Shown in pieces: positions 12,496 through 60,030 of a DNA stretch of 64,000 bases. The position numbers and the translations under genes were made by a program. The notes beneath the pieces are model-generated. The model was not told where the DNA came from. It searched no databases and saw only the letters and a program-made list of their open reading frames with translations. This DNA is from a virus. Its lineage: Duplodnaviria > Caudoviricetes. The stretch is from the IMG/VR virus record IMGVR_UViG_3300037400_008007, positions 10,616 through 74,615 of that record, one strand, 5' to 3'. Position 1 is the first letter of the stretch; each line of letters begins with the position of its first letter.

Positions 12496-12600
12496 ATTCT
12501 GTTTTTGAGGTTGTGTAAAATTGACGGCAAAGGTAATAATAATAGTCGAGACGTGAAAAGGAAGAATGTTTTTTATCAAATATTTAACATTATTCCTTTG

Positions 12601-12679
12601 TCAAAAATTTGCATATATGATAAATTTTGATTACCTTTGAGGTAGCAAATAAGATAAATACACTTCAAAACTTACGATT
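12601..12679 (+). promoter_or_regulatory. early promoter/leader repeat copy 1
   Basis: TTTG 12608-11, 20-nt spacer, TACCTTTG 12632-39, GCAAATAAGA, TCAAAACTT, ATG 12680. Confidence 0.85.
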
Positions 12680-13600
12680 ATGAACACAATCAATCTTTCA
12701 GACCTGCAGCAGCAGACACAGGAAATCAAAGAACACATAGCACGTTACGAGGCTACTCACGAACCATCGCAGTTCCGTGTGTTTCCTCGCGCCATGGAGG
12801 CTATTGCCGAGTATGGTGCCGAGAACATCTTTTTGGTGAGCGAGGTTTACCATGGTATGTATCACGATGACTATGCATATTTTGAGTACTATAACAATGT
12901 GACGGGCGAGACATTCAAGGACCAATGGACTACTGCTTTCTGCTGCCCAGCTTACCAGTTCTACAAGTGCGTAACGATTGAGGACGCATGGGAGTGTGGT
13001 TTTGTCAATGCCGAAAAGTGGCTCAAGTCAAAGAAAGAGGAACTGCTTGCGTATCTGTCCGCAGCTGCTATTCCCCACATTCCTGTAGCCGAACTTATCA
13101 AAGCGAAAGCCCTTGTGTCTGTCCGTAAAGGGCGCAAGTGGCAGGGTACTGGCTACATCATCAAGAAGCGAGACATGAAGTTTGGGTATAAGTCTGTGAC
13201 CTACGCAATCATATTCGACCCCATGACAATGACCATTAACGAGGTCAATGCCGACTACGTTCAGATAGAGGACATGGAGTGTCTGGAGAAGATGTGGAAG
13301 CAGGAGTGTAAGGACATGATTACGGCTTTGCAACCGTCAGACGTAGTTGTTTCTAACGGACGCATCGAGACAGGCTGCAAGGTAGATTTTATTAGCTGGC
13401 TTACCAAGCGCAACGAGGGTGTGATATTGGACTACTCGGAAGCGTCATGGCCTGCACAGGAAGCAAGAGATAAGAAAGCATCAGAGTTTAAGGAGAAGAA
13501 GATGGCCGAGCTTGTTGAGTGGGTCAAGACGAACACCGACAGGAAAGGCGATGATATTCAAGCCCTCGCAGAACGTATCTTCGCACGTCGTTACGCATAA
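12680..13600 (+). CDS. hypothetical protein
   Basis: 306 aa, first gene after promoter repeat 1. Confidence 0.8.
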   Translation: MNTINLSDLQQQTQEIKEHIARYEATHEPSQFRVFPRAMEAIAEYGAENIFLVSEVYHGMYHDDYAYFEYYNNVTGETFKDQWTTAFCCPAYQFYKCVTIEDAWECGFVNAEKWLKSKKEELLAYLSAAAIPHIPVAELIKAKALVSVRKGRKWQGTGYIIKKRDMKFGYKSVTYAIIFDPMTMTINEVNADYVQIEDMECLEKMWKQECKDMITALQPSDVVVSNGRIETGCKVDFISWLTKRNEGVILDYSEASWPAQEARDKKASEFKEKKMAELVEWVKTNTDRKGDDIQALAERIFARRYA

Positions 13601-13635: not shown

Positions 13636-13747
13636 AAAAAAACTTTGCAGGAAAGCAAAACTTTCTCGCTAAAAATTCGCATATTTGATAAAATCTTTGT
13701 ACCTTTGGTATAGCAAATAAGAAAAGTAACCTTCAAAACTCAAGACA
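13636..13747 (+). promoter_or_regulatory. early promoter/leader repeat copy 2
   Basis: TTCG 13676-79, 20 nt, TACCTTTG 13700-07, TAGCAAATAAGAAAAGT, TCAAAACT, ATG 13748. Confidence 0.85.
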
Positions 13748-14056
13748 ATGTGTACTTCAATTTTAGCAAGTCAGAACGAGATTAAAGCCAAGTATGGCAA
13801 GGAAGTAATCATCCTCTCTCTCTGTGGAGATTTCTATGAAGCATACGAGGATGACGCAGAGACCATAGCAAGGCTGTTGGGTATTACGCTCACCAGACGT
13901 AGTGAAAACGGTGATAGCAGAAAGGGCATCCGTATGGCAGGTTTCCCACGTCATGCGCTCGACACATATCTGCCAAAGCTCATCAGAGCTGGCCACAGGG
14001 TTGCCATAACCGAGCTTGTTGTCAAGGAGGTGGTTGCTCCTGGCATAGCACTATAG
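13748..14056 (+). CDS. stand-alone MutS domain I (mismatch-recognition domain) protein
   Basis: [42 protein letters not shown] match MutS_I; no ATPase domain. Confidence 0.85.
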
Positions 14057-14910: not shown

Positions 14911-14990
14911 AAAAAGTTTGTGTATTTGATAAAATATGCTTACCTTTGCCAATGCAAATAAGATAAAGTAATAATCAAAACTTAGACATC
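14911..14990 (+). promoter_or_regulatory. early promoter/leader repeat copy 3
   Basis: TTTG 14917-20, 20 nt, TACCTTTG 14941-48, GCAAATAAGA, TCAAAACTT, ATG 14991. Confidence 0.85.
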
Positions 14991-15278
14991 ATGGCAAACA
15001 AAGTTGTTGAGAACACCGCAAGGCGCATCGTGGCTTTCAGCGATGACGGCACTTGCAAGCTCATTGCCACACGCAGAGCGAACAAGATCGAGCGTTTCGG
15101 TCGTACCGCTTTTGTTGGCTCGTACTGGACGTTAGAGACATTCCAGAGGCAGGGCGACAAATTTCAGCCAATGGTATTCAAAGGCTTACCCTCTCGTTAT
15201 GAGTTGAAGCAAGACGTAATTGCGCAGCTTCAGAGTTCCGTTCGTTTCACAGAAGCATATAAGGAGTTAAGTGTATGA
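14991..15278 (+). CDS. hypothetical protein
   Basis: 95 aa after promoter repeat 3. Confidence 0.75.
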   Translation: MANKVVENTARRIVAFSDDGTCKLIATRRANKIERFGRTAFVGSYWTLETFQRQGDKFQPMVFKGLPSRYELKQDVIAQLQSSVRFTEAYKELSV

Positions 15279-17712: not shown

Positions 17713-18086
17713 TACATAGGTTCATGTCGCAGGCAGAATACAATCTGTTTTGCAGTGGTGAAGAAGTCCGTAACAACAGCCGCCATATAGGTTATAGGAC
17801 AACGAGTATTGGCTTCTGTTTCTTTGTGGAAAACCCAGAGGAAGCGATACACTGGCTATCCGGCTGCTGTGACCCAGAGCAATGTGTTACGTTGGAGATT
17901 GACGAGAAACTGCTACAGAAAACGACTGGTCATTACCGAAACCCCAAGGGCGGTACAATAGACAGGACGGAATACTGTTGTACGTCCTACTCGTTGAGAA
18001 CAGCGCGATTGTTGGCAGTAACAGACAAATACAGAGGATTGGCTGAAATGCGTAAAGCGTTGCGTTTGCTCGGGCTTATTTGGTAG
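17706..18086 (+). CDS. hypothetical protein
   Basis: 126 aa; STSIGFCFF-like motif seen in small phage proteins. Confidence 0.65.
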   Translation: MVVHRFMSQAEYNLFCSGEEVRNNSRHIGYRTTSIGFCFFVENPEEAIHWLSGCCDPEQCVTLEIDEKLLQKTTGHYRNPKGGTIDRTEYCCTSYSLRTARLLAVTDKYRGLAEMRKALRLLGLIW

Positions 18087-18203
18087 AAAAAAACTTTGCT
18101 TTTTCTTAAACTTTCTTGGTCAAAAATTTGCATATTTGATAAATTATGCCTACCTTTGAAGTAGCAAATAAGATAAGTAACAACTTTTCAAAACTTCAAA
18201 ACT
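18086..18203 (+). promoter_or_regulatory. early promoter/leader repeat copy 4
   Basis: TTTG 18127-30, TACCTTTG 18151-58; 116/121 nt identical to copy 5. Confidence 0.9.
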
Positions 18204-18536
18204 ATGGCAACAACAATTTCGCAGAACAGCAACAAGAGTATGGTAATGAGAGCTGCTTGGGCAATGCTCAAAAAGGCAGAAGTGGCAAACATCAGCGAGG
18301 GTCTGAAACTCGCATGGAAAGCAATCAAGTTGAAGATTGCAATGGCCAAGGGAGTGGTTACGTTCCAGTACCGCAAGGCAAGTGGTGAAGTCCGCACGGC
18401 TATTGGAACGCTAAAGTCGGGTATCGTGAACTACGAGCCAAAAGGCACGAACCGCAAGCCATGCTACTCAACCGTAGCCTACTGGGACATCGAGAGAAAG
18501 GGCTTCCGTTCATTCTGCATCAGTCACTTAATTTAA
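18204..18536 (+). CDS. DUF2693 / SH3-like beta-barrel (WYL_2-type) protein
   Basis: VTFQYRKASGEVRTAIGTL ... YWDIERKGFRSF. Confidence 0.75.
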   Translation: MATTISQNSNKSMVMRAAWAMLKKAEVANISEGLKLAWKAIKLKIAMAKGVVTFQYRKASGEVRTAIGTLKSGIVNYEPKGTNRKPCYSTVAYWDIERKGFRSFCISHLI

Positions 18537-18598
18537 GTGGCTGACAGCAGACCGAGAGAAACAGAAAGTAAGTAAAACAAAACATAGGAGATACAGAT

Positions 18599-18988
18599 AT
18601 GTTACAGAAAATTAAGCAGCAGTATTACGAAATGGGCTTCAACCTGTTATCGGGAATCGTGGTTGACAAAGAGCTAAAGAACCAGTTGACAGCAATACTG
18701 GAGAAAGCCAAGCAAGAGATAAGCAATCTTATCAAGGACAACCCAGACCATTACATGATGACTAACGGCAGCTATGTCTATCCGTTCGGCAAGCAGACAG
18801 ACTTCAACTACAAAGAGCCGCCTCGTATGTTTGACCTTTCACTGGAGCAGAGACTCCACTTGTTAGACGCAGCATTTGCCGTGAAAGAAATCGAGCATCT
18901 GTTTGTGTCAGAAGAGAACATGAAGTTGGACGATATTAAGGCACAGGCCCAGCGAGCCATTGAGGACGAAATGGCAGAGCGTAAGTAA
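18599..18988 (+). CDS. hypothetical protein
   Basis: 129 aa, ATG start. Confidence 0.7.
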   Translation: MLQKIKQQYYEMGFNLLSGIVVDKELKNQLTAILEKAKQEISNLIKDNPDHYMMTNGSYVYPFGKQTDFNYKEPPRMFDLSLEQRLHLLDAAFAVKEIEHLFVSEENMKLDDIKAQAQRAIEDEMAERK

Positions 18989-19001
18989 TACCATCGTGAA
19001 T

Positions 19002-19283
19002 ATGGCAAACAACGTAAGATTATCGTTGGAGCAGATAAACAAGTTGAAACATGCGGTCGGGCTGAATAATATCAGATCGATGCCAAAGAACGGAATCTAT
19101 TCAGCCTACCGCAACTTCTTTTCCGCACAGAACAAGGACATAGATTGGGAAGAGCTGGTGAAGATAGGCTATGCTACCTGCCAGTATGTGCAATGGTGTC
19201 AGGAGTATTGCTATTGTGTCAGCACTGCCGGACTACGTTACTTGGAAGGATTGCTCGACATCAAAATTGAAGTAAAGAAATGA
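19002..19283 (+). CDS. hypothetical protein
   Basis: 93 aa from ATG 19002; YRNFF...DWEELVKIGYA. Confidence 0.65.
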   Translation: MANNVRLSLEQINKLKHAVGLNNIRSMPKNGIYSAYRNFFSAQNKDIDWEELVKIGYATCQYVQWCQEYCYCVSTAGLRYLEGLLDIKIEVKK

Positions 19284-19984
19284 AGAAGATAATGTTTAAC
19301 TCTCGATATGGTCTGGAGCAGGCAGTATTGAGAGGCGTAAAAACACAGACAAGGCGAGTGATTGACATACCGCAGGTGTGGCACGGGCTTGACGTACACG
19401 GCTCACATCGCTCAAAGGATAAAAGGTCGCTGGTGCTTACAGATAGCGATGACTGTATTTTGAGAGACGAAGCTGGCCGTTATGGGCAAGTCTTACCAAA
19501 GTTCCAGTTCAGTGAGTGCGTGGCTGTTGCACAGTCGTATAATGCTATCTATGACGCGATGGAAGAACAGTACGGCAACAGCAAGGCAAATGAATGGTGG
19601 TGTTCTGCGTGTGATTATGTCTATAATCATCAGCAAAATCAGTTTGGCCTTGCCACAACCGAAGGCTACAGAAACAAGATGTTCGTCAAGGCAGAACTTA
19701 TGCCCCACGTCATCGAGATAACAGACATCAAGGTAGAACGGCTGCAGGACATTAGCGATGAGGACTGCCTGCGGGAAGGGATTATAAAACGTGACGATTT
19801 GATAAACTGCAGGATGGAGAATATCATCCGCTATACATTTGAAGGTAGTTTTGAGAACCATATCTGGAAATCCTACACCACACCGCAAGAAGCCTTCTCC
19901 CGCCTTATCGATAAAGTATCGGGCAAAGGAACATGGGAGAGTAACCCTTGGGTGTTTGCTTATTCATTCCGACTAAAAGACTAA
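19280..19984 (+). CDS. ASCH-like domain protein
   Basis: GVKTQTRR ... VERLQDISDEDCLREG ... WESNPWVFAYSF. Confidence 0.7.
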   Translation: MKKIMFNSRYGLEQAVLRGVKTQTRRVIDIPQVWHGLDVHGSHRSKDKRSLVLTDSDDCILRDEAGRYGQVLPKFQFSECVAVAQSYNAIYDAMEEQYGNSKANEWWCSACDYVYNHQQNQFGLATTEGYRNKMFVKAELMPHVIEITDIKVERLQDISDEDCLREGIIKRDDLINCRMENIIRYTFEGSFENHIWKSYTTPQEAFSRLIDKVSGKGTWESNPWVFAYSFRLKD

Positions 19985-19990
19985 AACGAT

Positions 19991-20368
19991 ATGGCACGAT
20001 TAATAGAAAGCAAGTTCCTCGTCATCGAGGGGAAAGGTAGTGAGTTCCTACAAGCAGGATTTGGTGGTGGGCCAGTTCAAGAAGTGGGTGTTATCAAGAG
20101 CGGCCTTTTTGCAGGCTTCTCCATGATAAACGTAGGAGTTGGAGAAACATTGGTATGCGACACCTGTAACAGCGGAATATTGCCGTCAGAGACGTGTTAC
20201 TATATCGCAGTCCTTAATCGTCTGTACTGCTCCGACTGTTTTAAGAAATGGCATGATGGCGCAACGTACTATCCAGAAGATGCCGTCTATGAGCGCAGGC
20301 AGTACCAGCATACTGAAGCCATGCTTATCGAAGCCGGAATAGAAATCGAGAAAGGAGGCAGGCCATGA
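19991..20368 (+). CDS. hypothetical Zn-binding protein
   Basis: CDTC and CSDC pairs. Confidence 0.6.
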   Translation: MARLIESKFLVIEGKGSEFLQAGFGGGPVQEVGVIKSGLFAGFSMINVGVGETLVCDTCNSGILPSETCYYIAVLNRLYCSDCFKKWHDGATYYPEDAVYERRQYQHTEAMLIEAGIEIEKGGRP

Positions 20369-20742
20369 AGAATGTACCAAGAAAGATATGGCTACAGACC
20401 TATGATCCAGTACCTACAGAAGTTGGAGAGGATTTGCAAGACATCGACTTTGAAGAACTACACAGGAATGGAGTGGTCACATGGGAGAGCGAGCAAATCC
20501 ACTCAACCGACATCGAGTATGAGCATGTGGGCAGTCAGTGGCGAAAGTATGCAGAAGAGCCGCCTACAAAAGAGGGAGAGGTTGTGCTGGTGGTTTATGA
20601 CGATGGCAGCGTAGCGTTGAGCAGAACGTTTAAGATTTCTGACGGCTCCGTACAAATTCTTGTCGGGAAAGACTGCCAAGCCATACTTTGGATGCCATTC
20701 CCAGCAACACCCGAAGAACTGAAAATAAACATAAAGCTATAG
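20365..20742 (+). CDS. hypothetical protein (DUF551-like C-terminus)
   Basis: WRKYAEEPP ... ILWMPFP. Confidence 0.55.
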   Translation: MKNVPRKIWLQTYDPVPTEVGEDLQDIDFEELHRNGVVTWESEQIHSTDIEYEHVGSQWRKYAEEPPTKEGEVVLVVYDDGSVALSRTFKISDGSVQILVGKDCQAILWMPFPATPEELKINIKL

Positions 20743-20744
20743 TT

Positions 20745-21026
20745 ATGAAGAAAGACGTTACACAGATGCGGTTCTTTGCCGCAGAACTCCGCAAGGAGCT
20801 TGACAACAATGCTATTGAGGGATGCTATTGTGAGGTAGAAGCCTACGAGGACGGAACAGATGACCCGAAAATCAAGGTCAAGTCCAGTGCTGCCAATCCC
20901 GATCAGACCACCCTATACTGTCTTGATGAGATTTGCGAATACTGCCAGGCAAACGAGCTGAACCACTACATTACGGTGGAGCCATTGCTTAGTGGTGTAT
21001 TCATTCCTGTCATCATAATATTCTAA
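20745..21026 (+). CDS. hypothetical acidic protein
   Basis: 93 aa from ATG 20745. Confidence 0.65.
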   Translation: MKKDVTQMRFFAAELRKELDNNAIEGCYCEVEAYEDGTDDPKIKVKSSAANPDQTTLYCLDEICEYCQANELNHYITVEPLLSGVFIPVIIIF

Positions 21027-21036
21027 CGGCCATGAA

Positions 21037-21096
21037 GTGCAGCCACACTTTTCTTATTTGCTACTCAGAGAAGTTTTGATATATCACAGGCTGCAC
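21037..21096 (+). ncRNA. hairpin displaying antisense to the conserved leader boxes (candidate 3'-UTR sRNA)
   Basis: 8-bp stem GTGCAGCC/GGCTGCAC; loop holds ACTTTTCTTATTTGCTACTC and GAAGTTTTGA, reverse complements of leader boxes A and B. Confidence 0.55.
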
Positions 21097-21105
21097 AGGT
21101 CGTTT

Positions 21106-21133
21106 GGGAGTGTCATTTGGCACTCCCTTTTTT
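21106..21133 (+). terminator. intrinsic terminator
   Basis: GGGAGTGTC/GGCACTCCC stem plus T-run. Confidence 0.85.
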
Positions 21134-21135
21134 GT

Positions 21136-21253
21136 GAAAAAAACTTTGCTTTTTCTTAAACTTTCTTGGTCAAAAATTTGCATATTTGATAAATTATGCC
21201 TACCTTTGAAGTAGCAAATAAGACAAGTAACAACCCTTCAAAACTTCAAGATT
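21136..21253 (+). promoter_or_regulatory. early promoter/leader repeat copy 5
   Basis: TTTG 21177-80, TACCTTTG 21201-08, ATG 21254. Confidence 0.9.
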
Positions 21254-21580
21254 ATGCAAAAGAGAACCGTCATCAACAGAGCTTACAAGGCAGTTGCCGA
21301 GTCAAGAACTACTTCTCACATCTTCCGCGATGAAGATTGGAGCGGAGTGTCGCAGTTAGTAACCGTCCTGGAAAGCAGTCTGCCAAGAACAGCAGTCATG
21401 ACGCTGGCCAGTGCAGAATACAAAGGTGTGATTGGTGAGTGTGGCCACCGCAAGGTTTACCTCTACAATATCATTGATGAAGAGAATTGTATCGACATCA
21501 ATGCGCAGATTACCGCCAGTTTTTGCGGAACAATGGCCGACCCGATGGGTGCCTACGACCTTACCCTTATTATGAACTAA
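21254..21580 (+). CDS. hypothetical protein
   Basis: 108 aa after repeat 5. Confidence 0.75.
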   Translation: MQKRTVINRAYKAVAESRTTSHIFRDEDWSGVSQLVTVLESSLPRTAVMTLASAEYKGVIGECGHRKVYLYNIIDEENCIDINAQITASFCGTMADPMGAYDLTLIMN

Positions 21581-21598
21581 AGTAAGGAGGGAAAGACT

Positions 21599-21832
21599 AT
21601 GAAAGCAATCGTTATAATTCATCTGGCTCGTAAGACGAGGATGGGAAGATCAATCATCACAGAGAAGATTGAGCGCAAGAAAGAGAATATTGTGAATGCA
21701 GTCAATGACTACATCTATGAGAGAACGAACCGAAAGAACTTTATCCCTGTTGTAAAGTTTGAAGTCAAGATACTCAATTACAAGAACAAGGTGGTTAATC
21801 AATGGGAGTACACACCAACTAACAGAGGATGA
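21599..21832 (+). CDS. hypothetical protein
   Basis: 77 aa. Confidence 0.65.
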   Translation: MKAIVIIHLARKTRMGRSIITEKIERKKENIVNAVNDYIYERTNRKNFIPVVKFEVKILNYKNKVVNQWEYTPTNRG

Positions 21833-21835
21833 GTT

Positions 21836-22030
21836 ATGGTTGGAAAGAGAACAACTTTGAGTAGCGATGAAATCCGGCTTGCAATGGAAGCACTGGAATG
21901 TCAGATGAACACCATCGAGATAATCAGAGAGAAGCGTATCGGTATTGAGGACGAAGAGTTAGACCGTCAGAAAACCGAGTACCAGACCCTGTATGACAAA
22001 TTCAAGAAATTAAAGAGCAAGAGAGTATGA
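21836..22030 (+). CDS. hypothetical protein
   Basis: 64 aa. Confidence 0.6.
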   Translation: MVGKRTTLSSDEIRLAMEALECQMNTIEIIREKRIGIEDEELDRQKTEYQTLYDKFKKLKSKRV

Positions 22031-22359
22031 ACGAGCGAGTACCAGCATATATTGATGACAAAGACGTTACAACCGACTGGCTGGATAACATCTTTGATAC
22101 GTTGGACTTCCTGTATAGCACCAGGCGGCAGATTGGTATTGTCGCAGGCTGTGTGGTTTCCGTAAGCTGGCATAGCAATGTGGTCGAGTGGCAAGTGTCG
22201 AAAGACATGGGTGGCGACTACAATTCAGCTTACCTCATTTTAGAGGAACGGTTGAAGAGCATGGAGAGTAAAGAGCAGAACGTATATTCCGAGATAAAGC
22301 ATGAGAATGATAATGGAAAGCTCTGCATCTGGCAGTCGTTTTACTTTCGAGACGAATAA
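22027..22359 (+). CDS. hypothetical protein
   Basis: 110 aa. Confidence 0.65.
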   Translation: MNERVPAYIDDKDVTTDWLDNIFDTLDFLYSTRRQIGIVAGCVVSVSWHSNVVEWQVSKDMGGDYNSAYLILEERLKSMESKEQNVYSEIKHENDNGKLCIWQSFYFRDE

Positions 22360-22473
22360 AAAACTTTGTGGTTTTCGTAAACTTTCTTGGTAAAAACTTG
22401 CATATATGATAATTTCTTTGTACCTTTGAAGTAGCAAATAAGATAAGTACAAACCATTCAAAACTTAGAAATT
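22358..22473 (+). promoter_or_regulatory. early promoter/leader repeat copy 6
   Basis: CTTG 22397-400, TACCTTTG 22421-28, ATG 22474. Confidence 0.85.
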
Positions 22474-22806
22474 ATGAAAGAGATTATTCTGAAGCAAGAG
22501 ACTATCGACGCAATCATCGAGGCCATTAAGGAGGATTTGAGCGTTGAGGACGAAATCACGACCGTTGACGATGCCGAGTTTGAGCAGGACGGGAACACAA
22601 TCTTTGTAGGCTACAAAGTGTTCGCAGAGTGGAAAAAAGAAATGATGTACCACAGCGAAGTTCCTTATAACAACTACGAGGACTTGTCTAAATGGGAGGT
22701 GACTGGCAGTGAGGTTGAGAACATTGCTGCTTACGACGAAGACGGAGAGGAATTGGCAATCTCCGAGGAATACATCAAAATTATCAACAAGAAATTGGCT
22801 GCGTAA
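22474..22806 (+). CDS. highly acidic hypothetical protein
   Basis: 110 aa, 29 D/E versus 10 K and no R. Confidence 0.75.
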   Translation: MKEIILKQETIDAIIEAIKEDLSVEDEITTVDDAEFEQDGNTIFVGYKVFAEWKKEMMYHSEVPYNNYEDLSKWEVTGSEVENIAAYDEDGEELAISEEYIKIINKKLAA

Positions 22807-24231: not shown

Positions 24232-24263
24232 ATTGCTGGGTACTGTGACTAAGTTTTGAAGGA

Positions 24264-24300
24264 GTGGCCATTGTCTGTGAAGATAGTGGCCACATTTCTT
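24264..24300 (+). terminator. 13-bp hairpin with GTGA tetraloop, preceded by an anti-box-B stretch
   Basis: GTGGCCATTGTCT-GTGA-AGATAGTGGCCAC; CTAAGTTTTGAA at 24249-60. Confidence 0.7.
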
Positions 24301-24418
24301 GAAAAAAACTTTGCTTTTCCCTAAACTTTTTCGGTCAAAAGTTTGCATATTTGATAAAATCTTTGTACCTTTGTTATAGCAAATAAGATAAACAACAAAC
24401 ATTCAAAACTTTAAGATT
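24301..24418 (+). promoter_or_regulatory. early promoter/leader repeat copy 7
   Basis: TTTG 24342-45, TACCTTTG 24366-73, ATG 24419. Confidence 0.88.
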
Positions 24419-25129
24419 ATGGCAAACGTAAGAAGAACAGCACGCGAAATTCGCTTGGAAGCAATCGTTGAACTCCAGAACGAGTTGAACCAGTTGAGAA
24501 ACGAGAACCCTGTCGATGAGCAGTGGGTACATAAGTATAACAATTACAAGTTATACGAGTTGGGCGAAGTCAAGGAGCGACTGACAAAAACCATCGAGGC
24601 CGAGAAGTTCCAGAAGAAAGTTGATGAGTTCTTTGCTGGAGAGGGTGCAAGCATCAAGGCAGAGATTGAGAGTCGCAAACAGCTTATCCGTGAGACCTAC
24701 AAGGCCATCCAAGAAGAAATAGAGAGCATTGCGGAGAAAGCTTTTGAAGGTACTGTGTGGACTGTGCAACGTAGTGGTGTCAATGCCTTTACTGCCTACA
24801 TCGAGCTTGGTATGGTCGGAGAGAACGGTTTGTATATCCACCATAATGATTTTGAACTCAAGTATGAACGTAAGTGGTTGGGAAATAACGAAGCAGAGTT
24901 TACAACAAACATCGGCACATGTGGCTCACAAGATGTCCTTGATGACAGTTTCGGCTCTCGCACATTCTATTACATTCAAGTTGGTATGCTCCTGCAGGAC
25001 AAAGCAAAGCTGGAGAAGCTTCGTGATGACATGGCCGCTCTCTGCAACCGCATGGGAGAGCTTGATGACATGAAGAGAAGAATAGAAAATGTAGAGGCAG
25101 ACCCTTTCACAAACAAGCTGGAGGACTAA
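24419..25129 (+). CDS. hypothetical protein
   Basis: 236 aa, coiled-coil N-terminal half. Confidence 0.8.
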   Translation: MANVRRTAREIRLEAIVELQNELNQLRNENPVDEQWVHKYNNYKLYELGEVKERLTKTIEAEKFQKKVDEFFAGEGASIKAEIESRKQLIRETYKAIQEEIESIAEKAFEGTVWTVQRSGVNAFTAYIELGMVGENGLYIHHNDFELKYERKWLGNNEAEFTTNIGTCGSQDVLDDSFGSRTFYYIQVGMLLQDKAKLEKLRDDMAALCNRMGELDDMKRRIENVEADPFTNKLED

Positions 25130-44490: not shown

Positions 44491-44590
44491 AGAATTTGAT
44501 AAAAAATCCCTCAAAAAAATTTGTGTATTTGATAAATTTTGCTTACCTTTGCCATAGCAAATAAGATAAACGACTTCAAAACAAAAAATT
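44491..44590 (+). promoter_or_regulatory. early promoter/leader repeat copy 8
   Basis: TTTG 44520-23, TACCTTTG 44544-51, ATG 44591. Confidence 0.85.
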
Positions 44591-44815
44591 ATGGTAAAAT
44601 TCACGTCTGAATGTGATTACGCATCACTTACACTTGCGACAATCATGCTCGTTTTGAGCATTGCAGTAGTAATCTATGCAATTTGTGTCAAAGCTCCCTT
44701 TGGAAGCATCTTTATGAACGGCATTTTTGTTGCTTTCTCCTATGTGTTGTTCCGCGTACTTTGGAAAGAGGGTACAGTACATGTAACCAAGGGCAAGCAG
44801 CAGGAAAAGGTATGA
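44591..44815 (+). CDS. small two-TM membrane protein
   Basis: 74 aa, hydrophobic. Confidence 0.65.
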   Translation: MVKFTSECDYASLTLATIMLVLSIAVVIYAICVKAPFGSIFMNGIFVAFSYVLFRVLWKEGTVHVTKGKQQEKV

Positions 44816-53373: not shown

Positions 53374-53490
53374 AAAAAAACTTTGCTTATTTGATAAAAT
53401 TTCCGCCAAAAAGTTTGCATATTTGATAAATTATGCTTACCTTTGGAGTAGCAAATAAGATAAGTCAAACCTATCAAAACTTAGAAAAAA
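53374..53490 (+). promoter_or_regulatory. early promoter/leader repeat copy 9
   Basis: TTTG 53414-17, TACCTTTG 53438-45, ATG 53491. Confidence 0.88.
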
Positions 53491-53745
53491 ATGAAAAAAG
53501 TTCACTATGTGGGTCTTGAGTGTATTTCACTTGACCAGATGTTGAAAAATATGGCCGAATTGCAAGGCCATAAGGTAATCGTAGAGGTTCACCGCTTCGC
53601 GGACAATCTCTATAATCTGTCGGTCTATGGCGAATTGCCCGAGTCCTGGGATTGGATTGGTGAAGAGACAGGCGATGAGCTTTGGGAAGGTGAAAGGCAG
53701 TATGAGGCAATGAAATTATCATGGGAGAAATCTTATAATTCTTAA
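53491..53745 (+). CDS. hypothetical acidic protein
   Basis: 84 aa after repeat 9. Confidence 0.7.
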   Translation: MKKVHYVGLECISLDQMLKNMAELQGHKVIVEVHRFADNLYNLSVYGELPESWDWIGEETGDELWEGERQYEAMKLSWEKSYNS

Positions 53746-55140: not shown

Positions 55141-55255
55141 AAAAAAAGTTTGAATATTTGATAAAAAACTTGGTCAAAAATTTGTGTATTTGATAATTTC
55201 TTTGTACCTTTGAAATAGCAAATAAGACAAGTACCAAATTCAAAACTTAGTGATT
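55141..55255 (+). promoter_or_regulatory. early promoter/leader repeat copy 10
   Basis: TTTG 55181-84, TACCTTTG 55205-12; 88 bp identical to copy 12. Confidence 0.9.
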
Positions 55256-55534
55256 ATGAAATCTTTGAACAACATCAAGAAGCAAGCTGAATTGCTGAAA
55301 GCACAAGTCAACGAAGCAGAGCTGACTCTGCAGGGCTGTGAGGTCGATTTCCAAGAAGAGCAGACAAAAACCAATTTCGATGCTCTGGAGAAAGCGAGAG
55401 AGGAATACCGTAAGACTTACATGCTCTACGATAGTTGCATCAGTTACATCGCAAACTACGACTTCTACCGCCAGTGCGAGAAGCAGGAGAGAGAGGAAGC
55501 AGAGTGCCGCAGAATGGCATTAGCATATTGTTAA
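55256..55534 (+). CDS. hypothetical coiled-coil protein
   Basis: 92 aa from ATG 55256. Confidence 0.7.
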   Translation: MKSLNNIKKQAELLKAQVNEAELTLQGCEVDFQEEQTKTNFDALEKAREEYRKTYMLYDSCISYIANYDFYRQCEKQEREEAECRRMALAYC

Positions 55535-58281: not shown

Positions 58282-58300
58282 ACATTATACGACATATACA

Positions 58301-58363
58301 TATTTGCTAATCAAGTTTTGAATTGTTTGCTTGGCTCACCGTCCTTGTGGCGGTGGGCTTTTT
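58301..58363 (+). terminator. anti-leader boxes followed by intrinsic terminator
   Basis: TATTTGCTA 58301-09, AAGTTTTGAATT 58313-24, hairpin GGCTCACCG/CGGTGGGCT plus T5. Confidence 0.75.
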
Positions 58364-58380
58364 GAGGTGAAAACATTTAT

Positions 58381-58483
58381 TTTTTCACAAACTTTCTTGG
58401 TCAAAAACTTGCATATTTGATAAATTATGCTTACCTTTGAAGTAGCAAATAAGATAAGTCAAACCTTTCAAAACTTAGAGATT
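58381..58483 (+). promoter_or_regulatory. early promoter/leader repeat copy 11
   Basis: CTTG 58408-11, TACCTTTG 58432-39, ATG 58484. Confidence 0.88.
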
Positions 58484-58894
58484 ATGTTACAGTCAGAATT
58501 TGAGAAACTGGTGCAGATGAACGTAAGTCCTGCAGAGTTCGAGCACATCAACGCAGTGTATATGAATAGCGATTTGTGCAAGGAAGAGTTTGCTGCGCTC
58601 TGGGTGCAAATGAACAAGACCAGAGTTAAGCAAGCGAAAGAGGAAGCAAAGGCGAAAGCCAAGGAAGAGAATCTGCGTGAGCGCCTTTGGAAAATAATCG
58701 GCAAGTATGGCTGGAAAGATTATTCATGGAAAGAGCGCACACTGGCCCACACTGCTCTCAATCAGCGTGAGGAAAAAGCCATCGAAGAGGCTGGTTTGGA
58801 GCTGAAAGAGTACAACAGCGATGCTCAACACTATTTGTATAAGAGGATGAGTACCATGCTTTGGGAAATCCGTAAGTATCTGAAAGCAGCATAA
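58484..58894 (+). CDS. hypothetical protein
   Basis: 136 aa from MLQSEFE. Confidence 0.75.
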   Translation: MLQSEFEKLVQMNVSPAEFEHINAVYMNSDLCKEEFAALWVQMNKTRVKQAKEEAKAKAKEENLRERLWKIIGKYGWKDYSWKERTLAHTALNQREEKAIEEAGLELKEYNSDAQHYLYKRMSTMLWEIRKYLKAA

Positions 58895-59604: not shown

Positions 59605-59712
59605 TTTTGTAGTTTTCCTGAAAAAACTTGGTCAAAAATTTGTGTATTTGATAATTTCTTTGTACCTTTGAAATAGCAAATAAGACAAGTACCAAATTCA
59701 AAACTTAGCATT
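59605..59712 (+). promoter_or_regulatory. early promoter/leader repeat copy 12
   Basis: TTTG 59639-42, TACCTTTG 59663-70, ATG 59713. Confidence 0.9.
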
Positions 59713-60030
59713 ATGAAACACTTTTCAGTATTCCAGATTAAGGACGATGCAGCCAATGCACGTTACATCAAGTTCAGTGGTTTAGAACTTCTCGAAAGAA
59801 TGGGTCTGCGTGATCAGCTTTCAATCGACATCTATAATAAGGTGTACGAGGGTGACATCGAAGAGAACGGCACGACGGACGGAACGCTCGACAACATCTT
59901 CACCACGCTCAACATCGGCAAGAAGCCGGAAGGTTACAAGGGCCACAGTCTTTCAGTCTCGGACGTGATTAAGATGGATGGCAAGTATTACTATGTTGAT
60001 GACTACGGCTTTGAGGAAGTAAAACTTTAA
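59713..60030 (+). CDS. YodL-like domain protein
   Basis: VYEG...LDNIFTTLN...PEGYKGHSLSVSDVI...YYVDDYGF. Confidence 0.85.
   Translation: MKHFSVFQIKDDAANARYIKFSGLELLERMGLRDQLSIDIYNKVYEGDIEENGTTDGTLDNIFTTLNIGKKPEGYKGHSLSVSDVIKMDGKYYYVDDYGFEEVKL

Follow-up and report, generated by a model that had tools for sequence, protein, structure and literature searches.

A conserved folded RNA at the 3′ end of an operon in a rumen Bacteroidales phage, probably a brake on twelve cassettes with a common leader

Among phage-encoded RNAs, the closest described systems are the c4 antisense RNA of phages P1 and P7, which belongs to the immI operon, and the CI RNA of satellite phage P4, which are represented by the Rfam family C4 (RF01695). 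Base-pairing sRNAs derived from 3′ UTRs are established in enterobacteria (i.e. those of the CpxQ, SroC and DapZ type), and in phage T4 early mRNAs are acted upon by two proteins, the translational repressor RegA and the endoribonuclease RegB. To our knowledge, post-transcriptional control in Bacteroidota and their phages has barely been charted. In Bacteroides, sRNA pairing at the start region represses mRNAs, and UTR-derived sRNA candidates have been documented (PMC7366714). For Bacteroides thetaiotaomicron, 21 such candidates were reported, and the GibS sRNA of this species pairs with, and thereby represses, start regions devoid of a Shine-Dalgarno sequence (PMC7366714).

The locus described here lies in a window of 64,000 nucleotides (i.e. 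the whole stretch of DNA that was analysed), which is part of a 74.6-kb IMG/VR provirus. Judged from its relatives, the source is a phage of rumen Bacteroidales; the 3′ end of one of its operons forms a conserved folded RNA, which is probably a brake on twelve cassettes. Positions 21027-21133 (+ strand) are best explained as the structured mRNA 3′ end of a seven-gene operon driven by one of twelve promoter-leader units. The promoter-leader of this operon occupies 18151-18206 (+ strand; -7 box at 18151-58, box A at 18159-78 and box B at 18188-97, followed by the start codon), and no + strand terminator-like site was found between this promoter (18151) and 21106. The first gene of the operon (18204-18536, + strand) encodes a WYL_2 protein with an Sm-like SH3 barrel (Pfam PF10902, E 1.4e-20) and is syntenic in the related loci L129, L132 and L133; the operon itself is likewise syntenic in relatives, with the WYL_2 gene at its head. 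WYL_2 homologues were also observed to follow leaders in 17 loci from many leader-bearing phages; a role of this protein as an RNA partner would be pure speculation. The last gene (20745-21026, + strand) encodes a Cys-rich protein of 93 aa, which matched no Pfam or PHROG family and whose orthologue is followed by the element in every lineage found. This protein displays conserved CYC and C..C motifs and invariant cysteines at positions 27, 29, 59 and 67, and is possibly a small zinc-binding protein.

The element (21027-21102, + strand) is located between the stop codon of the 93-aa gene (which ends at 21026) and a strong intrinsic terminator. RNA folding predicted an outer helix, designated here as P1 (5′ arm 21027-21031, 3′ arm 21098-21102), which is kept in relatives with G-C to G-U changes, and within it a second helix, P2 (5′ arm 21037-21044, 3′ arm 21089-21096). 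P2 corresponds to the perfect 8-bp stem described in the original prediction and was recovered both by an inverted-repeat check and in the fold, its 5′ arm reading GTGCAGCC. The hairpin at 21037-96 folds at -17.8 kcal/mol (z -3.49), with 0/200 shuffles folding as well. The loop of this hairpin had been described as 44 nt long and as enclosing two leader-complementary blocks; its size and content are as stated, but it is not open, since the minimum-energy fold contains an inner 8-bp helix, P3 (21047-54 paired with 21067-74), formed by the tail of anti-box A and the head of anti-box B. Anti-box A (21047-21066, + strand) thus consists of the P3 5′ arm (21047-54) and a 12-nt apical loop (21055-66), which carries the complement of the box A core and includes the invariant letters TATTTGC, while the P3 3′ arm (21067-74) overlaps anti-box B (21070-79), the two together covering 21067-21079. 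The terminator (21106-21133, + strand) is composed of a 9-bp stem, a 4-nt loop and a T run; as had been claimed it is strong, and its 21106-21127 part plus T run represents the only + strand terminator-like site within 17900-22600.

A scan of 20700-21400 against Rfam (E up to 5) returned three chance-level matches only and no family for the region. Two other readings of the stretch were rejected. A degenerate promoter would require a distance of 20 nt between the TTTG and the -7-like motif, which is here ~10 nt, and a small ORF is at odds with the lengths of the indels that separate the lineages, which are not divisible by three. Inspection by eye found no TAnnTTTG box in the 100 nt upstream of the element.

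The twelve promoter-leader units of the window are highly alike, each being composed of a -33 TTTG-like motif, a conserved spacer, a -7 box (TACCTTTG), box A, box B and ATG, with box B positioned at -16 to -7 relative to each start codon. For -7 boxes of this type, the consensus TAnnTTTG is quoted in PMC7366714. On the minus strand, 21047-66 matched the box A query (consensus) at 20/20 positions with 0 mismatches, representing the sole minus-strand match in the window, at a chance expectation for such matches of 0.00. The same query identified eight + strand leader copies at ≤3 mismatches, and this pattern scan returned the matches on which the original prediction was based (17/17 from 13711 within the second copy, 13708-27, and 19/20 to the ninth copy, 53446-65). 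The 9-mer core of box A was observed 12 times on the + strand, once per leader, and once on the minus strand, in the element. The complement of box B at 21070-79 is 10/10 and exact to 18188-97 and 21238-47, i.e. to the fourth and fifth leader copies, again as predicted. The conserved part of anti-box A stops at the base complementing the G of the box A core, which is close to the position expected for the first base of an RNA transcribed from a TAnnTTTG -7 box (a putative start site).

The leader is widespread, as a scan for the -7 box tail plus box A core returned at least 111 stretches spread over numerous phage contigs of IMG/VR, which frequently carry several copies each. A full-text search of the literature for the leader motif returned nothing relevant. 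As a separate observation, the promoters at 53379-53400 and 55146-55168 display an extra copy of the -33/spacer motif (TTTG..TATTTGATAAAA) ~32 bp before the real one, and the other promoters carry a degenerate version (ACTTTGCTTTTTCTTAAAC) at the same upstream place. An inverted copy of the spacer motif was also noted at 12571-12590, ~40 nt upstream of the first promoter-leader unit, with a DNA palindrome around the -33 region of that unit.

The leaders are predicted to be essentially unstructured, with folds of -1.4 to -6.9 kcal/mol that are no better than those of shuffles. Predicted binding of the element was calculated by means of a windowed duplex search in which the cost of opening was charged for each of the two RNAs; this replaced an unrestricted duplexfold, which gave unrealistic long-range duplexes with huge opening costs. 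The twelve leaders were predicted to bind the element at -7.5 to -18.5 kcal/mol. By comparison, 72 other gene starts gave a mean of -2.6 and a minimum of -8.3 kcal/mol, with two at or below -7.5, and 240 dinucleotide-shuffled leaders gave a mean of -1.8 kcal/mol. The original prediction had proposed a comparison of this type, against shuffled controls, and the leaders were found to perform far better. On the + strand, the individual values, in kcal/mol, were -12.4 for leader 1 (12632-12682, from -7 box to ATG), -14.1 for leader 2 (13700-13750), -9.6 for leader 3 (14941-14993), -14.1 for leader 5 (21201-21256), which is the next one after the element and pairs in cis with anti-box A in a modelled read-through RNA, -15.3 for leader 6 (22421-22476), -9.0 for leader 7 (24366-24421), -7.5 for leader 8 (44544-44593), -18.5 for leader 9 (53438-53493), -11.9 for leader 10 (55205-55258), -12.0 for leader 11 (58432-58486) and -11.4 for leader 12 (59663-59715). 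In two related genomes (G002 and G001), the local element was predicted to bind the leaders of its own genome at -9.4 to -15.5 kcal/mol.

Orthologues of the 93-aa gene were identified in six lineages (60-83% protein identity), derived from IMG/VR records, two contigs of rumen Bacteroidales MAGs (134 and 163 kb) and metagenome contigs. All carry the element directly after the stop codon, with the same layout of P1, P2, anti-box A, anti-box B and terminator. One of them is encoded by a complete 97.9-kb phage from IMG/VR (G002), which has terminal repeats and twelve leaders. The two MAG loci (L132, JAFXVN010000028.1; L133, CACWFV010000001.1) lie inside contigs of 134-163 kb from sheep-rumen Bacteroidaceae and Bacteroidales MAGs. 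The presence of relatives in such large rumen MAG contigs suggests that this phage group is temperate and that its host belongs to the rumen Bacteroidales.

The orthologues were retrieved with an alignment query, as a single-sequence search with the 93-aa protein returned no related loci. Comparison of 20000-22500 with the GenBank phage collection by blastn gave no match. A first pattern scan of IMG/VR for the anti-element returned chance matches in coding DNA only; looser scans returned true homologues only in L025, L097 and L080, the remainder being chance matches. In genome contigs the same pattern, which is too loose there, gave ~120 chance matches together with the two known MAG prophages. 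The expectation that relatives with the leaders would also keep the anti-boxes was borne out in the six orthologous lineages, but not in five other leader-bearing relatives (53-93% complete), where no antisense copy of the core and no covariance-model match was detected. The element is therefore not universal among leader-bearing phages.

Comparison of the orthologous elements revealed that the helices are kept while their sequences change. The 5′ arm of P2 reads GTGCAGCC, CGGCCTCC, CTTCCTCT, CTCCCC or CCTCCTGC, five sequences that are unrelated to one another, and each lineage has the matching 3′ arm, so that all pair. MAFFT misaligned the stems, and a covariance model built from one lineage was used instead for a structural alignment of eight sequences. 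Run across ~600 kb of leader-bearing loci, this model recovered the window copy (43.8 bits, E ~1e-7) and those of the other lineages, with no additional match. In the model-guided alignment, 96.7% of cells were paired, compared with 45-53% for slid partners, and changes on both sides were observed in 15/28 pairs (7/9 in P2 and 6/9 in the terminator), with 0/500 shuffles reaching any of these measures. These pair counts are inflated because the alignment was fitted to a model of one lineage; the replacements in P2 are nonetheless plain by eye. With that bias attached to the alignment, the helices are those of a conserved structured RNA, maintained through compensatory changes.

The anti-boxes exhibited the opposite pattern. 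Mean pairwise identity among five lineages was 0.77 for anti-box A and 0.93 for anti-box B, compared with 0.31 for the linker plus P2 5′ arm, 0.23 for the linker between the two anti-boxes and 0.16 for the 3′ segment of the loop; third codon positions in the neighbouring gene reached 0.54. Two runs of letters do not vary at all, TATTTGC in the apical loop and AGTTTTGA, and in each lineage it is the apical loop that contains the conserved core of anti-box A. A variant of anti-box B with G in place of A occurs in L114. Among the element-carrying phages, box A and box B are themselves nearly invariant; in L129 and L139, the element has a mismatch or bulge relative to its own box A. The covarying stems, the conserved anti-boxes and the position in a coding-strand 3′ UTR before a terminator support the view that the element behaves like a selected RNA.

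Further anti-leader copies were identified elsewhere. A sister clade, represented by seven near-identical contigs from one metagenome, carries a colinear anti-leader that follows another gene and directly precedes a terminator. Its order is anti-box B′ followed by anti-box A, as in an inverted leader minus the spacer, and anti-box B′ matches the clade's own variant of box B next to the ATG. Hybrids of -26 to -28.5 kcal/mol were predicted for most of 14 leader variants, and several of these genomes have exactly one antisense copy versus five or six leaders. A scan for further elements of this type returned only contigs that are nearly identical and come from a single metagenome. Three copies of the box B 9-mer (21071, 24251 and 58313) were observed on the minus strand of the window, all between a stop codon and a terminator. 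The copy at 58298-58325 (+ strand) forms part of a weaker second element, with a partial anti-box A and an anti-box B, flanked by a stop codon and the terminator at 58332-58366. The orthologous 3′ UTR in G002 (L033) keeps only the anti-box B part and the terminator, and the 58298 element was downgraded from an equal partner because its anti-box A part is not conserved there. The third 3′-UTR copy (24248-24260, + strand) comprises anti-box B alone, just before a terminator-like hairpin (24248-24300 region); the records analysed contain no orthologue of it.

With little better than even confidence, we favour the explanation that the element base-pairs with the leader-bearing mRNAs and lowers their translation. 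The nested helices P1 and P2 would hold out the smaller hairpin P3, with the intrinsic terminator next to them. In such an arrangement, the apical loop of P3 would present the complement of the bases with which the transcribed leader begins (the box A core), and the strand just 3′ of the apical loop that of box B (target at -16 to -7). The RNA could act within the full mRNA or as a processed 3′ fragment, with pairing starting at the apical loop and extending by the opening of P3. Since Bacteroidota mRNAs are without a Shine-Dalgarno sequence and depend on an accessible, A-rich stretch ahead of the start codon, pairing in that stretch should lower translation and, probably, mRNA stability. The outcome would be that one cassette operon exerts negative feedback on the whole set of cassettes. 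Pairing in cells, repression and action in trans are what we infer from these features; the roles named in the original prediction, i.e. a master regulator of all 12 cassettes operating on a timer or in lysogeny, would be further functions that such an RNA might serve.

The predicted pairing might also be confined to cis, which we regard as improbable. The anti-boxes of a read-through RNA would then pair with the next leader ~160 nt downstream, or with the 5′ leader of the operon itself, with the consequence that downstream genes would be translated only from transcripts of their own promoter, or that the operon mRNA would be closed on itself. When 21027-21275 was folded as one RNA, the structure of lowest energy had anti-box A paired with the downstream box A and P2 displaced, and each of the three anti-box B copies of the window is situated 120-160 nt upstream of a promoter-leader unit. 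In the sister clade, anti-box A similarly pairs with a box A-like repeat just past the terminator. However, L130 and L131 keep the element though no promoter-leader follows the terminator, read-through of a strong terminator should be rare, and the read-through fold leaves box B and the start codon free.

A different explanation, to which we likewise assign a low probability, is that box A mainly serves at the DNA level, as the target of a transcription regulator; its inverted copy within the hairpin would be an extra binding or decoy site on dsDNA, and the RNA hairpin would be incidental. In two of the five leader-bearing relatives that lack the element (G005 and G009), the box A core GCAAATAAG is found in 21-24 copies on one strand with none on the other, and many of these are spaced 33 or 66-67 bp apart, upstream of promoters and outside the leader. 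Same-strand arrays of this kind were located at G005:C1:41450-41850 (L277), G005:C1:48380-48640 (L278) and G009:C1:31450-31800 (L279), and look like a phased protein-binding array or tandem promoter pieces. Because of these phased copies upstream of promoters, box A may also, or primarily, be a DNA site. The -33/spacer region in the window, moreover, resembles box A, with ~11/16 positions agreeing by eye, and two of the promoters are preceded by a duplicate of it. Against this, all + strand core copies of the window are at leaders and none upstream, and L130 and L131 keep the element with no promoter nearby. Flanking helices would be dispensable for a DNA site, whereas compensatory changes have preserved P1, P2 and P3, and the best conserved block is anti-box B, which matches an RNA-level element beside the start codon.

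The order of the two anti-boxes bears on the origin of the element. As stated in the original prediction, anti-box A before anti-box B is not the order of the inverted leader itself, but its use as a sign of separate maintenance proved weak, because the element is colinear with the start regions of several cassettes (box B, ATG, GCAAA...). Read on the minus strand, it presents box B, a few bases and GCAAATA..., and cassettes starting with ATGGCAA are found at 14991, 18204 and 24419. In L129 and L139, anti-box A reads ...GCCA.., the complement of AUGGC with the start codon, and the L139 loop is approximately a continuous, almost perfect antisense of the cassette start region (hybrid of -26.4 kcal/mol). 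The element may therefore have arisen via inverted duplication of a start region, and may use two registers, i.e. box A at the mRNA 5′ end, or box B plus the start codon. On sequence grounds, it is the conservation of the anti-boxes, rather than their order, that is indicative of separate maintenance.

The same likeness would suit a relic, in which an inverted duplication of a cassette start (box B, ATG and first codons) is kept only as a 3′ stabilizing hairpin with no pairing function, and the sister-clade element also resembles an inverted leader with its spacer deleted. Such a relic should decay like the linkers (0.16-0.31); instead, the anti-boxes hold at 0.77-0.93 while the stems are wholly replaced, and the conserved core sits in the apical loop in every lineage. 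We regard a functionless remnant as improbable. Least probable of all is a loop bound by an RNA-binding protein (e.g. the WYL_2 or 93-aa product of the operon) with a secondary likeness to the leader complement, since, despite the conserved synteny of the operon headed by the WYL_2 gene and the constant adjacency of the 93-aa gene and the element, such binding is purely putative, adjacency alone is weak, and the exact complementarity to the two most conserved leader blocks would be left unexplained.

Base-pairing with leader-bearing mRNAs thus being the preferred reading, a broader version of it may be put forward more tentatively. It is possible, though we would not expect it on balance, that the operon 3′ end provides phage-wide feedback, acting in trans on the leader that a dozen operons share, at two sites, one at the mRNA 5′ end and one ahead of the start codon, and shutting all of these operons down together. 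This would constitute an RNA counterpart of shut-off of the T4 RegA/RegB type, of which related Bacteroidota phages would independently have built versions for their own leaders. The element represents a compact test case, with one RNA, one shared leader and twelve operons, complemented by natural stem variants and the second architecture of the sister clade. If the proposal is true, it would show RNA-based coordination of gene sets by gut and rumen phages, and would offer a leader/anti-leader pair as a portable means of controlling genes in Bacteroides.

Like c4, the element is a structured phage RNA whose two short blocks are each complementary to a different site in phage mRNA, one of these sites being at the ribosome entry region, and it is made from the same kind of transcript as the one to be controlled. 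In silico, these two blocks are anti-box A with box A at the mRNA 5′ end and anti-box B with box B at -16 to -7. It is not a member of the C4 family, as the RF01695 covariance model gave no match in 20700-21400 (E up to 5), and it differs in that it is situated at the 3′ end before the terminator, whereas c4 is encoded in the operon leader and released by processing. Furthermore, its predicted targets are a leader common to twelve dispersed cassettes, compared with one operon for c4, and the hosts are Bacteroidota without Shine-Dalgarno-based initiation.

The element resembles 3′-UTR-derived sRNAs in its location, after the stop codon of the parental mRNA and ahead of the intrinsic terminator that it shares with this mRNA (a layout found in six lineages), in a seed conserved above its surroundings (anti-boxes A and B relative to linkers and third codon positions) and in a predicted target at the translation start. 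In contrast to these sRNAs, it is phage-encoded, its predicted targets are the phage's own mRNAs, including that of its own operon, and a discrete processed RNA is only putative; its seed is displayed in an apical loop within nested helices and not in a single-stranded 5′ segment. As for GibS, which acts in the same phylum, start regions without a Shine-Dalgarno sequence are the (here predicted) target, but GibS is intergenic and host-encoded, has its own promoter and metabolic targets, and has no sequence relation to the element. The proposed outcome resembles that of T4 RegA and RegB, i.e. coordinated post-transcriptional shut-down via a signal shared near the start codon; there the effectors are proteins and here the effector would be an RNA, acting on putatively 'early' cassettes. 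The kind of regulation proposed is thus already known from c4-like action and 3′-UTR sRNAs, while the display of a seed in a loop within a 3′ UTR, a leader shared by many operons and the setting in a Bacteroidota phage are new.
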